Shown: piece by piece, positions 1 to 40,217 of the stretch | Numbering within the stretch: position 1 is the first letter of the stretch | How the letters are laid out: each line of letters starts with the position of its first letter | Assembly: GCA_944372205.1 (NCBI GenBank) | Contig: CALVYM010000001.1 | Coordinates: forward strand, 1-40,217 | Source: an uncultured Bacilli bacterium | GTDB lineage: Bacteria > Bacillota_I > Bacilli_A > RF39 > UBA660 | Direction: 5' to 3' | Length of the DNA: 40,217 nt | The notes under the pieces: model-generated | Databases searched by the model: none | Seen by the model: only the letters and a program-made list of their open reading frames with translations | What the model was told of the DNA's origin: nothing | Position numbers and translations under genes: made by a program

Positions 1-218
1 ACTTCTTTTAACCATGGATAACTTTTACAAACTTTTGGTATTTCTTTTATTTGTTCATAACATGATAAAGAAATACCTGTTTCTTTATAGCTATTTATTT
101 TCTCTTCTAAAAAATGATTATATACAAATCTAGAGCAACCGATGGTTTGATTGATTAAATTTTTTTGTTCATTATTAGGATATAATCTAAATTGATAACC
201 TTTTAAAATAGTAGTCAT
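1..218 (-). mobile_element. tnpB: 5' part of an IS200/IS605-family tnpB (IS1341-type OrfB, RNA-guided endonuclease TnpB); the gene runs off the window edge
   Basis: Absent from the ORF track because it is cut by the window edge. Translating the minus strand from the ATG at 218 gives MTTILKGYQFRLYPNNEQKNLINQTIGCSRFVYNHFLEEKINSYKETGISLSCYEQIKEIPKVCKSYPWLKEV. This is the classic TnpB N-terminus (K.Y.FRLYPN.EQ, GC.RFVYN, PWLKEV). SD AGGAGGA is at 227-233. Confidence 0.85.
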
Positions 219-2787: not shown

Positions 2788-3615
2788 TCACCTCGTTCTT
2801 ACATAAATTGGTATTCTTTGATCAAGTTCTAATTTATTTAATATTTCATTTATAAAAGTATGAGATTCATGATATGTTTCATCTTCCAATATGCTTTTTA
2901 AAGCATTAATGAAATTATCTTTATTAGTAACTTGGATAATTATTGCTCTAATAAAACTCATATTATAATAAATTAAATCATAATCAAAAGTATATAAAGC
3001 CAAAACAACAAGTACTTGAATTTTTTCTTTAAAAAGCTCAAATAAAATACTATCTTTATAAATATTATTTATATCATTTGGTATATAAAGAGAAAATAAT
3101 ATATCTGATGCAATCATAGGGTGTTCATTAATTTCATAATTACTAGCCATTATTTCTTCTTCTAGTTCTATATCTTTAATATCAAAATAAGAATAATAAA
3201 TAGATAAAATTAATTTATCTTTTAATTCTGGATGTTCTTTAATAGTTTCAGTAAGAATAGCTAATGATAAAAGATATGTTTCTTTTTCAACTGATGCTTT
3301 TAATGTATAATCAAAAGACTTTGATTGATTCATAGAATCAATTTTATTTAATATTCTTGCTAATATGACATCATCAAATTTACTTGCTTGCTTTTTTAAA
3401 TCATTTACATAACTTATTACTTCATTTACACCATATTTACTTAAAATATTTTTTAATACTTTATTTTCTGTTTCAATTAAATCTTTTAATTTATCTTTAA
3501 ATAATTGATACCTTAAAGAATTTTTAAAAATCTCTAGTTCTTCATCAATTAAAATTTCATAATATTCATGGATTAAATAAATAATTTTTTTTAATTCTAT
3601 TATATCTTCAAACAT
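2788..3615 (-). CDS. Uncharacterised helical paralog family, member 1 (type B), first gene of the array
   Basis: 275-aa ORF with a G-rich SD (AATGGGGGA) 5 nt before the ATG. The C-terminus is RIPIYVRTR, as in member 3. No signal peptide or TM segment. Confidence 0.7.
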   Translation of the reverse strand: MFEDIIELKKIIYLIHEYYEILIDEELEIFKNSLRYQLFKDKLKDLIETENKVLKNILSKYGVNEVISYVNDLKKQASKFDDVILARILNKIDSMNQSKSFDYTLKASVEKETYLLSLAILTETIKEHPELKDKLILSIYYSYFDIKDIELEEEIMASNYEINEHPMIASDILFSLYIPNDINNIYKDSILFELFKEKIQVLVVLALYTFDYDLIYYNMSFIRAIIIQVTNKDNFINALKSILEDETYHESHTFINEILNKLELDQRIPIYVRTR

Positions 3616-3641
3616 AAAAATCCCCCATTAAAGTAATGTAT

Positions 3642-18967: not shown

Positions 18968-19089
18968 CTCTCCTATCTCTATTATGTCTAAATTATATCA
19001 TAAAAATACAAAAAACAACATATTTTTTTAAAAAATATATTAAAAAGTGTAAAATTGTGTTATCATATTAGAGTAATATAGGTGAAGTT

Positions 19090-20661
19090 ATGAGAAAAAT
19101 ATTAATTAAAATTAAAGATAATACTTTTATTATTAAAGAAAAAATTAAATTATCTAGTGAATATAAAAATATAATTAATACTAATGTTATTAGTTGTAAT
19201 GAACTAGTTTTTTCTGATGAATATATTCTTAATAACAAAAAAATTGTTGCTACGTTTATTAATGAATTAACTAAAACTTATAATATTGATACTTTAATCA
19301 TTGAAAAAAATGACTTTGCAATGCAATTTATTGATATAGTTAAAAATAATAAATTAATTACATCTTTAATATTAAAAGAAGATAGCCCTCTTACATTTAA
19401 GATGTGTGAAGCAATAATGCATTCATATATTAAAAATGTTAATTGCTATACCCTACAACCATTTATGATAGAATATTTAGATAAATATGATATTTTAGTA
19501 GAATCTAGAAATGAAATATTATACTTATCTAAATTTATGATTGATAATAATTTAAGTATTTTTTCATCTATATTTTATAAAATGACTATAACTTTAGATT
19601 TACCGATGAATGAAAGTGATGAACAAGATTTTGAGGCTTTTTGTAAGATTAATAAGTATTTGAAAACTATAAATGTTTTTATTGTTAATAAAAATGATTT
19701 AGAATATATAATTAAAACTTTAAGAGCTAATAATAAAAAGAATATTAAAATTATAATTCATGAAAATATTAGTAATTTAGAAGTAATAGAATATTTAAAA
19801 AATTTTAATAAGAAAAAAAGTAAAAGATATAAAATATATTTTAAATTAGAATATAGTAATGAATATTTAAAAGATAATATATTTAAACAAACAAATATAA
19901 GTATATTAAGAACTTGTGGATATTTAATATTATTAATTGTATTTTTCTCTTTTGGATATGTATTATATGATAATTATAAATCAATGCAAAATGATAGAAG
20001 TATCAAAGAAAATATAACTAAAGTAATTGAAATAAATAATTCAGAAGAAATAATTAATGAACTTAATAAAGATAAAGGTGAGGATGAAAAATTAGTTGTA
20101 AATGAAGATATTGCTAGTTTGTTAAATGTTAATCCAGAAGTTGTTGGATGGATTAAAATTAATAATACTAATATTGATTATCCTATTGTTCAGGGTGTTG
20201 ATAATAAATATTATTTGAAACATAATTTTTATTTAGAAAGTGATAATAATGGTTGGGTATTTATGGATTATCGTAATGATACCCAAGAATTAAGTGATAA
20301 TATAATTCTTTATGCTCATAATAGATATCAAAGTGGGGTAATGTTTGGAACACTACAAAATACTTTAAGGTATAATTGGTATAGTAATGCTGAAAATCAC
20401 ACAATAAGTTTTAGAACATTATATGAAGATTTAGAATATCAAGTTTTTTCGGTTTATAAAATAACTACTACAACCGACTACATGAAGACTATCTTTGCAG
20501 ATGATACCGATAGATTAAATTTTTTCAATATGTTAAAAAATAGAAGTATATATGATTTTGGAGTTGAACTTAGTGGTGATGATAAAATAATAACTTTATC
20601 TACTTGTGCCGATGATTATAATCGTTATGTACTTCATGCAGTATTAAAAACTAATAAATAA
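19090..20661 (+). CDS. srtB: Class B sortase fused to a long N-terminal cytoplasmic domain
   Basis: The C-terminal 230 aa or so carry SrtB-type signatures: VVGWIKINNTNIDYPIVQGVDNKYYLKHNF, ILYAHN and the catalytic TLSTC. A single TM segment (YLILLIVFFSFGYVLY) lies around residue 275. About 265 residues of unknown function precede it. SD AGGTGA. Confidence 0.8.
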   Translation: MRKILIKIKDNTFIIKEKIKLSSEYKNIINTNVISCNELVFSDEYILNNKKIVATFINELTKTYNIDTLIIEKNDFAMQFIDIVKNNKLITSLILKEDSPLTFKMCEAIMHSYIKNVNCYTLQPFMIEYLDKYDILVESRNEILYLSKFMIDNNLSIFSSIFYKMTITLDLPMNESDEQDFEAFCKINKYLKTINVFIVNKNDLEYIIKTLRANNKKNIKIIIHENISNLEVIEYLKNFNKKKSKRYKIYFKLEYSNEYLKDNIFKQTNISILRTCGYLILLIVFFSFGYVLYDNYKSMQNDRSIKENITKVIEINNSEEIINELNKDKGEDEKLVVNEDIASLLNVNPEVVGWIKINNTNIDYPIVQGVDNKYYLKHNFYLESDNNGWVFMDYRNDTQELSDNIILYAHNRYQSGVMFGTLQNTLRYNWYSNAENHTISFRTLYEDLEYQVFSVYKITTTTDYMKTIFADDTDRLNFFNMLKNRSIYDFGVELSGDDKIITLSTCADDYNRYVLHAVLKTNK

Positions 20662-20671
20662 TTAATATTTA

Positions 20672-21598
20672 TTAGTTTTTTTCAAAAGGATTTAAAGCTT
20701 TACAAATAGCCTTTTTAGGAGATCTGGTTAGTATAAAATTATCTTTTTTTACTTTATCTCTAGTTATACTTACATTATCAATATAAAACTTTTCAATTAA
20801 AGTTATAGCAAAATCATTAAGTTCATCTAAATCTTCTGTAAAATCATCTAAGACATAATTACCACGCATTTCTTCAACTATTTCACTAATTGGAGTACTC
20901 TCAATATAAGATATCACATCTTGCCATGAAGAATCTAAAATATCTTTTTCTTGTTCAATAATTAAATTTTTATAAACATTAGCAATAATGTATTGATAAA
21001 TTAAAGCATCATCTATTCCCGAATTTTGGACTTCAATACGGAAATTATTGATAAAATCTTCATCACTAGCATTATCTGAAAGTTCAGATTCTGTTATTTC
21101 ATATGTACTTAGTATAGTTATAATTGCCTCTTCTTCAGTAGTTAAATCTTGTAATATTTCTTGTAATGCAAATATACCAAACGGATTGATTGATAAATAA
21201 GTTGCTAAACTATCTAAAACATTTTCATAAGCTAAATGTTTTTCTAAATAATTTTTCATGGTAAATTCAATAAATTCTTTTAATATATTTTCATCTATTT
21301 CTCTATTTATTTTCTTTTCCAAAGGAAGTAGTTCAATATAATAAGTTAGTGCTTCATCTAATTCAAAATCTTCATATAATTTAGTTGCATAGTAAAATGA
21401 TACGTAAGCATCAGAATAAACAATTAATTTAGTAATTATATAAGCTAATGAAGGATTAATTATTTCCTTAAATTCTTGATTTATTATTTCTTTTGTTAGA
21501 TATTTACTTAAATCTTGAACATAATCTTCACTATTATCATAAAAGTATTTAACTTTTCTTTCTAATCTACTCCTACAAATATTAAATATATTATCCAT
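20672..21598 (-). CDS. Hypothetical acidic cytoplasmic protein
   Basis: Track ORF extends to 21640. I prefer the ATG at 21598 (MDNIFNI...), which has SD GGGGGT 4 nt upstream and does not overlap the upstream gene. No TM segments; D/E-rich. Confidence 0.6.
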   Translation of the reverse strand: MDNIFNICRSRLERKVKYFYDNSEDYVQDLSKYLTKEIINQEFKEIINPSLAYIITKLIVYSDAYVSFYYATKLYEDFELDEALTYYIELLPLEKKINREIDENILKEFIEFTMKNYLEKHLAYENVLDSLATYLSINPFGIFALQEILQDLTTEEEAIITILSTYEITESELSDNASDEDFINNFRIEVQNSGIDDALIYQYIIANVYKNLIIEQEKDILDSSWQDVISYIESTPISEIVEEMRGNYVLDDFTEDLDELNDFAITLIEKFYIDNVSITRDKVKKDNFILTRSPKKAICKALNPFEKN

Positions 21599-22460: not shown

Positions 22461-22500
22461 TTTTTTAAAAGGAAAATATGAATGCCAAAGCATTCATATT
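22461..22500 (-). terminator. Hairpin or terminator overlapping the stop of 22499-23890
   Basis: An 11-bp stem, AATATGAATGC (22475-22485) with GCATTCATATT (22490-22500), around a 4-nt loop. TTCCTTTT follows on the minus strand. Confidence 0.5.
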
Positions 22501-23890
22501 AGTAGTTTGTATTATTAGTACAAGTATAACCTAAAGTATTTTCATAGTAATTAGTTTTAAATCCTCCATATGATGCATCAAAAGTTCCTCCGGCTTCTAA
22601 ATCAAGCATTGACTTTGGCAAATCTTCTGAAATAGTTAAGATGTATTTTTCATCATCATATGATGCTAAACCAGTGTGATTATTAAATGTAATTACTTCT
22701 TCTTTTTCTCCAATAACACTTAAGTAATCTTCTTCATTGGCAAATGTATATGTATAGATACGTCTAGAAATTCCCATATAATTTAGACCTTCTGTACTAC
22801 TACCTATTAGTAGATCATCACTAATAGTCATAGTTCCATCATACCCTTCAATACTTGTTTCAGGAGATAAACACTCTGTAATAGCAGTTATATCATATGG
22901 AGCTACATATAAAACAGCATTGACTGGTTTAGAATTTTTAGCATCATCACTTAATTTAATTTCAATATTATAAGGTCCTCCAGGAGTTGCTAGATAACCT
23001 TGTACGGCTTCTTCATCAGCAAAGCTATACATACAATTAGATGAATCTGTGCAAGTTTTAATGAAATCATCTACACTAATTGTAGTATCACCAACAACTT
23101 TATATACAACGTTTAATTGAGCCTTTGGTGGTGTTTTATCAACAACATGAACAGTTCCACTATATGTATCATCACCACAAATTATGGTAAAGTTGTAATC
23201 ACCTATAGCATTAGCATTAATATTGTTATTATTTAAATTACATGAATCTGCTCCTCCACCAGTAACTGTAGCATAATCATTAATATTATCAGATACAGTG
23301 TCTCCTAAATTAATGGTAACATCTTTAAGAGTAACATTAACCTTATTACTGCTCATATTTAAATAATAATAAAGACCAAAAGCTACTCCTGCTATTAAGA
23401 CAACAATAATGATAACAAATAATACTTTGTTCATTGGTCTTTTTGGCTTTTCTTGTTTTGGAGGTACAGCCCCAATATCTTCTATTTTAGTAGGTTCTAC
23501 ATAAGTTCCCCCGGCATTACCTAATGTTATACCACTAGGATCTGCTCCAATACCACCACTGTTACTTGGCATATTCGAATTATTTTCAGTCCCAGGAATT
23601 GGTGTTGCTACTGCTTCAGTAGGTGTTGGTGTATTTGTTAATGTTTCTGGTGATGCTACATTTGATGTATTAGGAGTACTATTTACTTGTGGTGTTGGTG
23701 ATGAAGGAGTAATACTTTGGTTTGCATTAGGTGTTATGCTTTCTTGTAAAGATTGAGGTTGGGTATTTACTCCGGTATTTTGGTTTATCACTGGTGTTGG
23801 ATTAATATTTTCTCCTCCAGTTTGTGGTGTTCCCAAAACATTTGGTTGCCCTAAGTTTTGTGGTTGTCCTAAATTATTAGATTCATTCAT
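22499..23890 (-). CDS. Hypothetical bitopic membrane protein: disordered P/T/N/Q-rich N-terminus, one TM segment, Ig-like extracellular region
   Basis: 463 aa. The first 150 or so residues are low complexity (GQPQNLGQPNVLGTPQTGG...). KPKRPMNK-VLFVIIIVVLIAGVAFGLYYYL forms the TM segment. The C-terminal region has DKTPP-type Ig-domain junctions. SD AAGGGG. Confidence 0.65.
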   Translation of the reverse strand: MNESNNLGQPQNLGQPNVLGTPQTGGENINPTPVINQNTGVNTQPQSLQESITPNANQSITPSSPTPQVNSTPNTSNVASPETLTNTPTPTEAVATPIPGTENNSNMPSNSGGIGADPSGITLGNAGGTYVEPTKIEDIGAVPPKQEKPKRPMNKVLFVIIIVVLIAGVAFGLYYYLNMSSNKVNVTLKDVTINLGDTVSDNINDYATVTGGGADSCNLNNNNINANAIGDYNFTIICGDDTYSGTVHVVDKTPPKAQLNVVYKVVGDTTISVDDFIKTCTDSSNCMYSFADEEAVQGYLATPGGPYNIEIKLSDDAKNSKPVNAVLYVAPYDITAITECLSPETSIEGYDGTMTISDDLLIGSSTEGLNYMGISRRIYTYTFANEEDYLSVIGEKEEVITFNNHTGLASYDDEKYILTISEDLPKSMLDLEAGGTFDASYGGFKTNYYENTLGYTCTNNTNY

Positions 23891-36741: not shown

Positions 36742-37341
36742 TCAACTAATTTTTGCACAAAAGACAAAAAATCCTTTACTTTTTTCTACTATTTTTATAT
36801 TATACCACTTTTCTAGTGCATTTTTTGTCGATTTAGCACCTTGGTCTTTATTTATGACAAACCATAATTCTCCATCTTCATCTAAATGTTCTTTTGCCTC
36901 CGTAAGTATTTTTAATACTGTCTTTTTTCCAGCCCTAATCGGTGGATTTGTTATTATATATTTATATTTATTTTTAACATTTTCATATACATTACTTTCA
37001 AAAACCTTACAATTTTCTATATTATTTAATTTTATATTTCTATCACATAAATGTATTGCTCTTTTATTGATATCTATTATATCTACATTTGCTTTAGTTA
37101 ATATTGCAATAGTAATACCAATAAAACCATAGCCACCACCTACATCTAAAATTTGATTACAATCTAAATTAGAATGATATTTTAAAAATGATTCTACTAA
37201 AAGTTTAGAAGCATAATCTATTTTATTTTTAGAAAATACACCATTATCACTTAAGAATGTTAGTGTAATACCATTTCTTTGATAAGACAGTTCTCTTATC
37301 TCACTTTTTAAATTTTCGTTATTTGTAAAATAATGTTCCAA
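36742..37341 (-). CDS. Class I SAM-dependent methyltransferase, YbxB/RsmC-like (MTS domain)
   Basis: Motif I ILDVGGGYGFIG and motif IV IITNPPIRAGK. It occupies the same position as B. subtilis ybxB, immediately upstream of rpoB. TTG start with SD AAAAGGGGAA. Confidence 0.8.
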   Translation of the reverse strand: MEHYFTNNENLKSEIRELSYQRNGITLTFLSDNGVFSKNKIDYASKLLVESFLKYHSNLDCNQILDVGGGYGFIGITIAILTKANVDIIDINKRAIHLCDRNIKLNNIENCKVFESNVYENVKNKYKYIITNPPIRAGKKTVLKILTEAKEHLDEDGELWFVINKDQGAKSTKNALEKWYNIKIVEKSKGFFVFCAKIS

Positions 37342-37370
37342 TATGTTCCCCTTTTCTCCGACATATATTT

Positions 37371-37399
37371 AGTATACTATAAAATTTCGTTTAAAGCAA
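37371..37399 (-). promoter_or_regulatory. Promoter of the methyltransferase-rpoBC unit
   Basis: Minus strand reads TTGCTT (37394-37399), a 17-nt spacer, then TATACT (37371-37376). Confidence 0.45.
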
Positions 37400-37498
37400 C
37401 TAATTTTAGGACAAAATTTAAATTTCTTGACATCATATATCACCACAAGACATTTCTGGTTTCACAGAGCAATATAGCGTTTAGCAAATTATGAGTGA

Positions 37499-37548
37499 GA
37501 TAAAAGTCAATAGTTGTTTTACAACTTGTCTTGCTATTGACTTTTATC
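37499..37548. terminator. Perfect 15-bp inverted repeat (bidirectional terminator-like hairpin or protein-binding palindrome)
   Basis: GATAAAAGTCAATAG (37499-37513) pairs with CTATTGACTTTTATC (37534-37548) around a 20-nt loop. The loop holds a nested AGTTGT/ACAACT mini-hairpin. The A-tract and T-tract arms make it symmetric on both strands. Confidence 0.5.
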
Positions 37549-37564
37549 GAACGAATGATATAAT
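37537..37564 (+). promoter_or_regulatory. Near-consensus plus-strand promoter pointing into the repeat array
   Basis: TTGACT (37537-37542), a 16-nt spacer, then TGaTATAAT (37556-37564, extended -10). No plus-strand ORF with an SD follows. Confidence 0.4.
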
Positions 37565-37597
37565 CCTTAATGCAAATTATAAGTTTTATTTATTATC

Positions 37598-37756
37598 AAC
37601 CCCATTAAAACTTGTTGATATATATTAAGTTTTCTTCCCACTAAAACTTGGAATTTCAAAAAAATATAACCCCATTAAAACTTGGAGTTATATTTTTAAA
37701 TTATCCCACTGATTCGTGTAGTTTTACTATTTTTCTTAACCCCACTAATCCGCGGA
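37598..37756. repeat. Five direct, degenerate C-rich repeats with a 34-36 bp period, of unknown function
   Basis: The units are AACCCCATTAAAACTTG (37598), TTCCCACTAAAACTTGG (37635), AACCCCATTAAAACTTGG (37668), ATCCCACTGATTCGTG (37703) and AACCCCACTAATCCGCGG (37738). The CCCA cores lie at 37601, 37637, 37671, 37705 and 37741. Units 1 and 3 sit in the loops of 6-7 bp local hairpins. Confidence 0.7.
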
Positions 37757-37797
37757 GATCTACTCTAAATTTTTATAACTTATTAATGTCTATTTTT

Positions 37798-38361
37798 TTA
37801 ATAAGCATCACAAGTGTTTAAAGTACTAGATAATTTCCATTGGCCATCTACACTATAAATATAAATACTAGAATTAATATCTCCATAAGTTACCACTTTT
37901 TCTTTATCATCACCATTAAAACGTAAATTTGTTAAATTTAATTGGGTAATTGATTGACATGGATTTTCTATTTTTTTTACAAATAAAGTATTATTCATTT
38001 CAATATATTCATTAACTTCTTTGTTATTTAATATTTTTTCTAATCCGATATCTGTAAATGTATCTTCAAGCAAAGAATTATATTCTTCTAACGTTTTAAC
38101 TACTAATTCATCATTTATTGCTCTATATGTTGTATTATTTAAAGTTATTTTACCATCATCTAATTTTACATCACCATAAAGCATATAATAAATTACATAA
38201 CTATTATTAACTAATTGTTCAACTCTTTCTTTTAATATTTGATTATCAGTTGATTCTGCATTTAAATTATTTTTTTTATTAATAATTAATACAATAATAA
38301 CAATTAATGCAATTAATAATATAATGATAATTGCCAAAGCTAAAATGTTCTTTTTCTTCAT
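37798..38361 (-). CDS. Hypothetical N-terminally membrane-anchored extracytoplasmic protein
   Basis: The track start at 38370 is a GTG inside the SD AAGGTGA. I prefer the ATG at 38361 (MKKKNILALAIIIILLIALIVIIVLII...). The SD overlaps the stop codon of the upstream giant gene. There is one TM segment followed by a soluble domain of about 155 aa. Confidence 0.65.
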   Translation of the reverse strand: MKKKNILALAIIIILLIALIVIIVLIINKKNNLNAESTDNQILKERVEQLVNNSYVIYYMLYGDVKLDDGKITLNNTTYRAINDELVVKTLEEYNSLLEDTFTDIGLEKILNNKEVNEYIEMNNTLFVKKIENPCQSITQLNLTNLRFNGDDKEKVVTYGDINSSIYIYSVDGQWKLSSTLNTCDAY

Positions 38362-38366
38362 TATCT

Positions 38367-40217
38367 TCACCTTTTTAAATAATAATAATCAATTCTAACA
38401 CTGTATTGCCAATAATTATAATCTACCCAATCTTCGTATTCGCATACACTTGTACTAATTAAAGTTCCTCGGCTACAAGTATAACAAGTACTACCATTTA
38501 GTCTATCACCACGGTCACATGAATATTCTACTCCTTCTCTATCACAATCAGCTCCGTAATTACCTTGCCAAGTACATGTCTTGGTACAATTACGTCTGCG
38601 TTGTTCACCAGGAGTACAAGGTACTGTGCTAGGAACTGGATCACATGTATAAGTTTCGCTATATCCTTCATCACAAGCTGTATACGTTGAATCACCTTCT
38701 AGCCATCCACCACCGCCAGGATTACAAGTCCACATACCATAACCATTAATTGTATATCTATTACCTCTGTTTGCTACACAAGTTGAACCGCTAGCTACTC
38801 CTCCTGCATCACATGAATAATAACTACAATATCTATCTTCATAAGCACCATAAGAATCAGCTCTTTCTGTAAATGGTTCTAATCTTCGAGAACTTTGGGT
38901 TGTTCCACCAGTAACAGTAAATGAAACTGTTTTATTAGATAAACTTTTAGATGATACTGTTCCACCACCACTTATTAATGAAACATTTGATAAATAAACA
39001 ATATCACTTATAGTCTCTGAACTTCTAATTGTGCTACTTGTTTCACTATATAAATCACTTACAATTTTTGATTTTGTACTACGCTCTACTACATCACTTA
39101 CTTTAAGAGTTGTATAACCAATATTTCCAGCTTTATCTTTAACCCATATATAATAGGTAGCATTATCATTTGCTGTATAAGTTGTTGTATATTTATCTGT
39201 TCCTTCAGTATTTATTTCAATCCAATTACTTGGAGTAGTAGATGATGTTGTTATTTGATATCCATTTAACCCTGATGTTTTTGATGCTGTATCTCCAGTT
39301 TTTGTATCTGCTACATCATTTACTGAAACATCTAGAACAAAACTAAATGCATATTTTGATTGACCAGAAATGTAATCAGACTTACTTTTATTTATCGTTA
39401 ATTTTCCAGTTGGTTTAATTGTATCAATATTTTCTACTTTATAGTCGGCACATTCATGATTATTTAATGAATCTTTAGCACAGAAATAGTATGTTCCATT
39501 TTGCGTTACTTCTTTTTCTTCTTTTAATTCAGTTGTTACATTATTAACTTTATTTGTTAATGTTTCATCTTTGTTATTACTGTTTGCAAAACCATAACTT
39601 GCTATTCCTGATTGGTCATCGTATGTTATTCCTATTAAAGTTACTTCATTTGTCCAATTTTGATTGCCATCTTGATTAGTATTGGTTGGATCTCCATTTA
39701 ATTCAATATGACTAATTCCACCATCAACATTAATTATTTCAAATGCTTCACTAATTTGTGATACATTTCCCACATTATCTATAGCACATGCTCTATATGT
39801 TCCTTCTTTTCTTACTTCTTGAGTTATTTTTGTTTCATCTTCTATTTCTATGTAATCTAAATCTTCTGTACATTCTGTTAAATCTAATCCTACATATATT
39901 CCTTTTAAACCTGAACCATTGCCATCGGTTGCTGTTATATCTACCACTCTACTTGTTGCCCATTGGGTTGGATTTGGAATATTTATTGCTATTATTCTTG
40001 GAGCTTCTTTATCTATATTTATTGTTGCTTGAGCTTCTGCATTAATATTTTTACCATTTTCATTGTATCTAACACTTACGCTATATGGCATACTACTTAC
40101 TATTCCTTCAGATACTTCTGTAGTAACAGTGTCTTTTGTAGTTATTCCACCATAATTACTACGCCATTCGTAAGTAGCTCCATCTTTTTTAAATATAGTT
40201 TTATTTTCACCTAGGAC
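38367..40217 (-). CDS. C-terminal part of a large surface protein: repeated Ig-like modules plus a cysteine-rich C-terminal domain (5' end outside the window)
   Basis: The reading frame stays open upstream of the track M at 40091 to the window edge (...GATYEWRSNYGGITTKDTVTTEVSEGIVSSMPYSV...). Repeated modules are marked by G.Y...A.D..GN (EGTYRACAIDNVGN, NGTYYFCAKDSLNN, NATYYIWVKDKAGN) and D..AP/KP junctions. The last 165 or so residues contain 14 Cys and the repeated block YSCD.G....GSTC. There is no LPXTG motif. Confidence 0.75.
   Translation of the reverse strand, partial: VLGENKTIFKKDGATYEWRSNYGGITTKDTVTTEVSEGIVSSMPYSVSVRYNENGKNINAEAQATINIDKEAPRIIAINIPNPTQWATSRVVDITATDGNGSGLKGIYVGLDLTECTEDLDYIEIEDETKITQEVRKEGTYRACAIDNVGNVSQISEAFEIINVDGGISHIELNGDPTNTNQDGNQNWTNEVTLIGITYDDQSGIASYGFANSNNKDETLTNKVNNVTTELKEEKEVTQNGTYYFCAKDSLNNHECADYKVENIDTIKPTGKLTINKSKSDYISGQSKYAFSFVLDVSVNDVADTKTGDTASKTSGLNGYQITTSSTTPSNWIEINTEGTDKYTTTYTANDNATYYIWVKDKAGNIGYTTLKVSDVVERSTKSKIVSDLYSETSSTIRSSETISDIVYLSNVSLISGGGTVSSKSLSNKTVSFTVTGGTTQSSRRLEPFTERADSYGAYEDRYCSYYSCDAGGVASGSTCVANRGNRYTINGYGMWTCNPGGGGWLEGDSTYTACDEGYSETYTCDPVPSTVPCTPGEQRRRNCTKTCTWQGNYGADCDREGVEYSCDRGDRLNGSTCYTCSRGTLISTSVCEYEDWVDYNYWQYSVRIDYYYLKR

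Follow-up and report, generated by a model that had tools for sequence, protein, structure and literature searches.

Small RNAs with C-rich loops are the best-known multivalent binders of low-G+C Gram-positive bacteria. Conservation of the motif alone, combined with a variable number of units, is the evolutionary pattern of the CsrB/Rsm sponge RNAs. To our knowledge, RNA regulators have hardly been studied at all in the uncultured Bacilli with small genomes (formerly "Tenericutes") that live in animal guts. LhrC possesses three redundant sites that pair with G-rich ribosome-binding sites (PMC4132741). Similar to LhrC, RsaE/RoxS and RNAIII use UCCC loops to bind G-rich ribosome-binding sites (PMC2790875, PMC4409812). 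Here, a block of C-rich repeats is described that is found in the window, the whole stretch of 40,217 nucleotides that was analysed. The window originates from an uncultured organism of the Bacilli/"Tenericutes" type from the chicken gut and has a G+C content of ~25–30%. The block is probably an orphan, strain-variable regulatory small RNA of a known general type.

The repeat block is housed in a gap of 456 nt (37342–37797) between a small methyltransferase gene and an ORF of 190 codons (Table 1), and all neighbouring genes are on the minus strand. The region to the right of the block (37798–40217) contains genes for membrane-anchored and large Cys-rich proteins, as do L002 (1–3901), L003, L203 and L213. 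The long proteins among them show a weak match to PF07963 (prepilin N-methylation). Number, size and sequence of these genes vary strongly across strains and species; thus, a hypervariable pilin-like surface locus adjoins the conserved methyltransferase-rpoB-rpoC genes. Within the gap, a stretch of 70 nt (37347–37416, minus strand) is kept in all close relatives. It includes a TTGCTT-17-TATACT site (37399–37371) and the ribosome-binding site AAAGGGGAAC, both on the minus strand, and is probably the promoter of the methyltransferase/rpoB operon. A second strong promoter-like site (TTGACA-17-TAGAAT, from 36745) lies shortly ahead of rpoB, in the 3' end of the methyltransferase gene. Elsewhere in the window, the region 19001–20700 has a G+C content of ~16% and a reversed GC skew, and 19090..20661 is the only long plus-strand gene. 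It encodes 523 residues with a C-terminal sortase domain.

Table 1. Features of the repeat block and of the flanking sequence, in window coordinates.
Feature	Position	Strand	Details
Class-I methyltransferase gene, small	36742..37341	-	Pfam MTS, E 1e-41; precedes rpoB and rpoC
Inverted repeat GATAAAAGTCAATAG / CTATTGACTTTTATC	37499..37548		arms 37499-37513 and 37534-37548; 15-bp perfect stem, 20-nt loop
Promoter-like site P2	37537..37564	+	TTGACT, 16-nt spacer, TGaTATAAT; 11/12 matches and extended -10 TG
Unit 1	37581..37620		core CCCATTAA, 37601-37608
Unit 2	37627..37656		core CCCACTAA, 37637-37644
Unit 3	37660..37697		core CCCATTAA, 37671-37678
Units 4 and 5	37703..37758		cores CCCACTGA (37705-37712) and CCCACTAA (37741-37748)
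Degenerate unit TCTACTCTAAATTTTT	37759..37774		from comparison with strains L225 and L229
Weak A+T-rich hairpin CTTATTAA/TTAATAAG	37779..37805	-	from sequence and fold; overlaps the stop codon of the 190-aa ORF
190-aa ORF, membrane-anchored	37798..38370	-	follows a 574-aa Cys-rich ORF

An earlier note on this DNA had described five C-rich repeats with spacings of 36, 34, 34 and 36 nt, and both the repeats and their spacings are found as claimed (core starts in Table 1). The 8-mer CCCAYTRA is invariant in all five units. The 14-mer CCCAYTAAAACTTG is identical in units 1–3 and has no further copy at ≤1 mismatch in the 40-kb window. The five copies of CCCAYTRA lie within 150 nt. The shuffle check suggested in the note was run with dinucleotide-preserving shuffles of the whole window, counting clusters within 180 nt; the largest CCCAYTRA cluster had one copy in 282, two copies in 12 and none in 6 of 300 shuffles. 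With at most two clustered copies versus five observed, the periodic motif is not expected by chance, and the excess is still very large for a motif that was defined post hoc, after the data had been seen. Pairs of units have a mean identity of 0.75 over the 13-nt cores and of 0.52 over the 20-nt spacers. Tandem Repeats Finder (minimum score 30) calls nothing at 37580–37780 because only ~13 of 35 nt are conserved per unit. The stretch of units 4 and 5 has the highest G+C content of the block (CCGCGGAG). GGA is present in three of the five units and lies outside the conserved core.

The three hairpins proposed in the note are all present. In unit 1, the arms TATCAAC and GTTGATA (37594–600 and 37614–20) are found together with an alternative hairpin, AAGTTTTA/TAAAACTT (37581–88 and 37606–13). 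The arms AAGTTTT and AAAACTT of unit 2 (37627–33 and 37643–49) enclose a loop of 9 nt, CTTCCCACT. The hairpin of unit 3 is longer than claimed and comprises 11 bp (AAAAATATAAC/GTTATATTTTT, 37660–70 and 37687–97), extendable by CCA/TGG. On the minus strand this helix is continuous over 15 bp and includes a G-U pair; on the plus strand it contains a C-A mismatch. Perfect stems of 7, 8 and 11 bp with CCC in the loop are present in three of the five units. When the cores were kept and the spacers shuffled 2000 times, enclosure of three of five cores by perfect stems of at least 7 bp was reached in 0.1% of the shuffles (P about 0.001). The enclosing stems are unrelated in sequence, which indicates conservation of structure among paralogous units. 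The fold of the plus strand has a z-score of −3.7. In this predicted fold, the CCC cores are mostly unpaired in units 1 and 2, partly paired in unit 3 and paired in units 4 and 5, the latter two being predicted to pair mutually in one long imperfect hairpin. The weak hairpin next to the 190-aa ORF is the right limit of the block in the window strain. The five to seven G3-4/C3-4 tracts are unlikely to form a long-loop G-quadruplex or i-motif, as the loops would be ~31 nt long.

The block is accessory and strain-variable; units as well as the whole block are gained and lost between strains. In many assemblies of the same species it is nearly unchanged. It is absent from L220 and L224, which belong to the same methyltransferase cluster at 90% identity, and from L211, which is 95% identical. 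These three have a different sequence from about 37417–37432 onward, and the left junction of strain variability at ~37427–37432 adjoins the block. Neither the block nor a comparable element is present at the locus in any of 75 related species, and a scan of species-representative genomes by the methyltransferase protein yielded 80 syntenic loci, none of them with the block. In the closest species of the genome collection (methyltransferase 81–86% identical), the gap has a length of ~100 nt and contains a canonical terminator; only 37347–37416 of the window's gap is shared. An alignable diverged homologue was not found between species.

The window strain has five units and other strains have one to four extra units (six to nine in total). 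At the position of the degenerate unit TCTACTCTAAATTTTT, L225 carries CCCACTCTAAATTTTT (CCCACT versus TCTACT in the window) and L229 carries CCTACT. Both strains have a further unit, CCCACTGAAA..., after 37774, which is missing from the window allele (15 nt short compared to L225); the extra unit of L225 reads CCCACTCTAAATTTTT CCCACTGAAATTTTT. The extension past 37774 is also seen as loose ends of RNA and DNA contigs. In L229, the sixth unit is located in a CTCTAAA/TTTAGAG hairpin, followed by the degenerate units GCCCTTAAAATAC, CTCCACTAC and TTCCTAAAG, and CCCACTTA is present in both unit 2 and unit 5. In one haplotype, the exchanges 37625 T>A and 37626 T>C convert G-U, U-U and U-A into three Watson-Crick pairs and lengthen the AAAACTTGTT/AACAAGTTTT helix. 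The strain SNP 37653 A>G keeps a pair on the plus strand only. Outside the units, the ATG of an ORF of 45 residues at 37491 is ATA in three assemblies.

The block is transcribed. Words of the segment 37560–37800 are found in six RNA-labelled chicken-gut runs from three studies in a public run index; two of them are ordinary metatranscriptomes, and the other four carry the label "RNA-Seq". As controls, equally long segments were taken from the methyltransferase gene (36900–37140) and from the 190-aa ORF (38000–38240); neither is present in any RNA-labelled run. They are matched only by runs of unspecified type, and those that were aligned (X13, X19 and X33) behave like DNA. This 6:0:0 split makes contaminating DNA a very unlikely source of the reads. 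When 20 kb of the window were compared with the runs X26, X27 and X28, the block alone was covered by long near-identical contigs; all else consisted of rpoB/rpoC fragments from other organisms, either short or diverged. The block is part of a non-coding stretch of ~300 bases that is far commoner in RNA libraries than the neighbouring genes. The RNA contigs are unstranded, have a depth of only 2–3 and span 37494–37644, 37504–37652, 37534–37711, 37583–37774 (+28 nt) and 37646–37774 (+48 nt). The sixth contig is a diverged relative. The contig of run X25 extends from 37583, 12 nt past the predicted start of P2, to the end of a sixth-unit hairpin, followed by CCGCTTTTT. The RNA-labelled run X30 yields a contig at 37659–37705 that is ~89% identical to the block, with TTTTCAATAAAACTTGGAAC and no CCC core at the position of unit 2. 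By its sequence, it suggests a diverged homologue of the block in another chicken-gut strain or species. The note had named a lack of conservation in relatives and of any transcript as arguments against its proposal; the block is present in strains of the same species and in RNA libraries.

P2 points into the repeats, with a predicted start at ~37571, and is the only site in the 40-kb window with at least 11 of 12 matches plus the TG. Promoter-like sites with at least 11 of 12 matches occur ~4.7 times per 40 kb in shuffles, both strands included; hence a site that directly precedes the block and is oriented towards it would be expected in roughly 1–2% of cases. An ATG exactly at the predicted P2 start opens an ORF of 12 codons (MQIISFIYYQPH, 37571–37609, plus strand), the stop codon of which is the TAA in unit 1. 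This ORF could be a leaderless mini-ORF, although chance is the probable explanation. The right arm of the inverted repeat contributes the −35 box of P2. Bordered by runs of A4 and T4 at its two ends, the inverted repeat looks like a bidirectional terminator, and it occupies the place of the upstream-gene terminator of related species. A stretch at 37438–37470 (ATCACYACAAGACATTTCT...AGAGC) is common to L217 (about 60–95, reverse strand), the methyltransferase of which is only 84% identical. In that species, the palindrome AAAGTCAAAAT/ATTTTGACTT adjoins the shared ATCACYACAAGACATTTCT stretch, and its half-sites AAAGTCAA/TTGACTTT also build the inverted repeat of the window.

The left ends of four of the six RNA contigs (37494, 37504, 37534 and about 37555) precede the P2 start, and the first three of them fall in the inverted repeat. 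Accordingly, a transcript spans the inverted repeat and P2 is not the sole source. By promoter scan and reading of the sequence, good promoters were found neither on the plus strand left of 37494 nor on the minus strand right of the block. A clear plus-strand terminator was not found in the window strain. The base pairs that tell the strands apart conflict, since the inner pair of unit 3 points to the minus strand and both 37653 A>G and G37614-U37626 point to the plus strand. Both strands may be transcribed, or the plus strand may have a second, unrecognised start. As the functional product, the plus-strand RNA has a modest edge.

An abundant RNA that displays one short motif many times in hairpin loops, in which stems and spacers are free to vary and the copy number changes, has the design of a multivalent binder. 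Of the readings offered in the note, a structured RNA that presents C-rich loops is the best supported, both by the RNA libraries and by the position of the cores of units 1–3 and of the sixth unit in loops. If read from the minus strand, these loops could equally be G-rich. The best explanation of the whole, a plus-strand small RNA that starts at P2 and pairs through its C-rich loops with G-rich ribosome-binding sites, is put forward as a tentative model, in which the strand and both ends of the RNA are inferred, as are its targets and the way in which it pairs. In this model, the ~35-nt modules, five here and six to nine in other strains, would form a non-coding RNA locus. Each module keeps CCCAYURA on the plus strand, and most display it in the loop of an A+U-rich hairpin, the stem sequences differing from module to module. 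P2 would drive a small RNA of about 205–235 nt. Its exposed C-runs would pair with G-rich sequences, typically ribosome-binding sites of the GGGG type, and would thereby hold down translation, with several equivalent C-rich sites providing redundancy or multivalency.

Ribosome-binding sites of the GGGG type are frequent in the window and are found at the methyltransferase gene, rpoB, rpoC and the ORFs 2788..3615 and 22499..23890. In units 1 and 3, CCCCAUUAAA is perfectly complementary over 10 nt to the ribosome-binding site UUUAAUGGGG (3619–3628) of ORF 2788..3615. This minus-strand ORF encodes 275 residues, and neither it nor its two neighbours of similar size have a Pfam match. Complementarity to the 29 translation-initiation regions of the window is not above that of shuffled RNAs (k=9, observed 4, expected 3.7), and the absence of enrichment in these start regions keeps the pairing mechanism tentative. 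RNAduplex runs against start regions gave uninterpretable duplexes with long loops. Furthermore, the invariant core of 8 nt exceeds the length that an anti-Shine-Dalgarno seed needs, and the predicted fold has units 4 and 5 base-paired; both points argue against the pairing model.

Transcription from the other strand is the main alternative to a plus-strand RNA. The block would then be a long 3'-UTR, or an RNA derived from the 3'-UTR, of the upstream pilin-like operon that ends at the inverted repeat (37548–37499) as an intrinsic terminator. Its G-rich UYARUGGG loops could serve as a sponge for C-rich small RNAs (like RosA and RsaI), act as decoys that resemble Shine-Dalgarno sequences or just form a stable structure at the 3' end. 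The left ends of the RNA contigs fit this, as they are evenly spread over 37494–37646 with no pile-up at 37571 and none left of the inverted repeat, which is placed where related species terminate the upstream gene. The common minus-strand orientation of the neighbouring genes, the weakness of the hairpin just after the stop codon of the 190-aa ORF and the continuous helix of unit 3 also speak for it, and G-rich sponge RNAs exist in Firmicutes (PMC8216469). However, the segment of the 190-aa ORF is in no RNA-labelled run, so that a minus-strand RNA needs processing or an unseen promoter, and the search for a minus-strand promoter was negative. P2 would become a coincidence at the 1–2% level, to which the X25 contig would add another by its ends, and 37653 A>G preserves its pair on the plus strand only. 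A minus-strand product is unlikely, though it has to be taken seriously. The RNA could also act on a protein instead of on ribosome-binding sites. An RNA-binding protein that recognises the 8-nt loop motif would be sequestered in several copies, as CsrA is by CsrB/RsmZ and Hfq/Crc by CrcZ. That only the motif and its hairpin display are conserved, with free stems and spacers, a unit number that varies between strains and an abundant RNA, agrees with such titration; the invariant 8-nt core suits a protein site better than a short seed, and one haplotype carries the same A>T at core position 7 in units 2 and 5. We know of no bacterial RNA-binding-protein site that CCCAYURA matches, and no candidate protein is known from the 40 kb of the genome that were covered. 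GGA motifs as in protein-titrating RNAs, also proposed in the note, are a weak case: they are restricted to three of the five units, they are not the conserved part and there is no match to the CsrB, Rsm or CrcZ families. Protein titration is considered rather doubtful. A similarly low probability is assigned to a new-style multivalent decoy RNA, in which five to nine hairpin-displayed CCCAYURA (or UYARUGGG) motifs would titrate a protein or complementary small RNAs or mRNAs, with a valency tuned by gain and loss of units, and which would travel with the pilin-like island.

A functionless, fast-evolving repeat at a recombination-prone junction might be transcribed since A+T-rich DNA easily yields promoters. 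It would account for units that are gained, lost and decaying and for the absence of the block from L220 and L224 of the same species, from the 95% identical L211 and from the 75 related species. It is improbable in view of the invariant cores next to spacers diverged to near-random identity, the enclosure of cores by hairpins beyond chance and the specificity of the RNA signal. If the block were only the by-product of a recombination hotspot, a strong and specific RNA signal and significant hairpins would be possible without conservation. The note had also considered protein-binding sites in the DNA, i.e. arm-type, iteron-like or recombination-protein sites, which would mark the border of the variable pilin-like island. 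In its favour, the array is built from a short motif in direct repetition and adjoins the junction of strain variability; it fails to explain the specific and abundant RNA and the loop-presenting hairpins. With no integrase, replication or transposase gene in the flank within the window and a spacing of 34–36 bp that is out of helical phase, a DNA-level role is very improbable. The order of promoter, five or six ~35-nt units and palindrome recalls a type III toxin-antitoxin locus, a ToxI-like array of ~36-nt repeats that has lost its toxin, and such loci are common in gut Firmicutes (PMC3401426). However, the units are not near-identical and are missed by Tandem Repeats Finder, there is no ToxN, CptN or TenpN-like gene, the adjacent 190-aa ORF is membrane-anchored, and no repeats lie beside its homologue in L002. 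A relic of this kind is scarcely credible. The note's coding interpretation, a decayed gene for 12-residue tandem repeats, has a practically negligible probability. A period of ~36 nt and a few apparently synonymous differences are all that favours it. The codon-like bias does not withstand counting: in the note's register, first codon positions account for two of the variable columns, and second and third positions for four each. Spacer sequences are unrelated, the units are distributed over three frames and no ribosome-binding site precedes an ORF over the repeats, the last two points as the note itself had stated. Furthermore, only one ORF with an ATG start covers the left part of the block, and other strains have lost this start codon.

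Family searches yielded no relative of the block. Rfam 15 gave no match over the window at the gathering score, including RsaE/RoxS and the other curated small RNA families, and at E up to 10 the matches of the region 37300–37850 were confined to eukaryotic miRNA and snoRNA models and are due to chance. The search for tRNA and tmRNA was negative. blastn against phage and plasmid collections found only A+T-rich chance matches. A degenerate three-unit pattern retrieved only unrelated perfect tandem repeats (marine, soil and termite) from metagenome and viral scans, and a stricter two-unit pattern had no match in viral contigs. Many unrelated marine metagenome contigs (L083, L085, L100, L115, L125, L128, L142, L146, L151, L165 and others) have three copies of CCCACTAATTCTT with a spacing of ~41 nt, and the viral contigs L201 and L202 have CCCACTAAACCTT three times at 41 nt. 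These 41-nt repeats may be a separate recurring element.

From these results, membership in the CRISPR, type III antitoxin, REP-like and CsrB/Rsm families is excluded. A CRISPR array was rejected; the period is 34–36 nt with only ~13 nt conserved per unit, and there is no cas domain among the window ORFs that were scanned. CRISPR family models do not match the repeat units; one hit of CRISPR-DR46 (37304–37328) is in the methyltransferase ORF and far below threshold. In the case of a type III system, there is no plus-strand ORF downstream and the neighbours have no toxin match in PADLOC or Pfam. A CsrB/Rsm sponge was dismissed on the position of GGA outside the core and the lack of an Rfam match. 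A dispersed REP/BIME-like repeat was discarded as the unit is unique in the 40-kb window and only this locus was found in four DNA metagenomes. ACCCCAUUAAAACUUGG resembles the 3' half of a preQ1-I riboswitch aptamer, but it has no G-rich partner upstream and there is no PreQ1 match at E up to 10. 6S/SRP RNA and a retron were considered and rejected as well.

The locus represents an orphan non-coding RNA with expression support straight from metatranscriptomes. Its units are gained, mutated and lost between strains and constitute a natural series for the evolution of multi-site regulatory or decoy RNAs. The adjoining hypervariable pilin-like surface locus is a possible regulatory target of the block RNA.

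Several known systems share single properties with the block. REP/BIME elements are likewise intergenic arrays of ~35-nt palindromic units that are transcribed and accumulate as stable RNA; in contrast to these, the block has no other copies in the 40-kb window or in the four metagenomes that contain the organism. ToxI, CptI and TenpI resemble it in the succession of promoter, ~35-nt unit array and palindrome and in their occurrence in gut Firmicutes (PMC3401426), but only ~40% of each unit is conserved in the block and no toxin gene lies beside it. In the case of a minus-strand product, its accessible G-rich regions could bind C-rich small RNAs as in RosA/RsaI (PMC8216469). RosA, however, has two or three G-rich regions that do not form a modular array, and there is no homology. 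CsrB/CsrC, RsmY/RsmZ and CrcZ are also abundant RNAs that carry many copies of a short motif on hairpins, with the motif as the only conserved part and a variable number of units. The motif of the block is neither GGA nor CA-rich and there is no family match. The closest likeness is to the UCCC small RNAs (RNAIII and RsaE of S. aureus, RoxS and FsrA of B. subtilis, LhrC1–5 of Listeria), to which the block has no sequence or Rfam relationship. It has 5–9 sites at a regular distance of 34–36 nt, whereas those RNAs have 2–4 irregularly placed sites; its motif comprises the 8 nt CCCAYURA instead of UCCC, and it is strain-variable while those small RNAs are conserved. In common with them, it would be a G-poor RNA of an A+T-rich Firmicute with redundant C-runs in hairpin loops or single-stranded stretches and, in strains with long arrays, a C-rich loop in the last hairpin. 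As for those RNAs, G-rich ribosome-binding sites would be plausible partners (PMC2790875, PMC4132741, PMC4409812).
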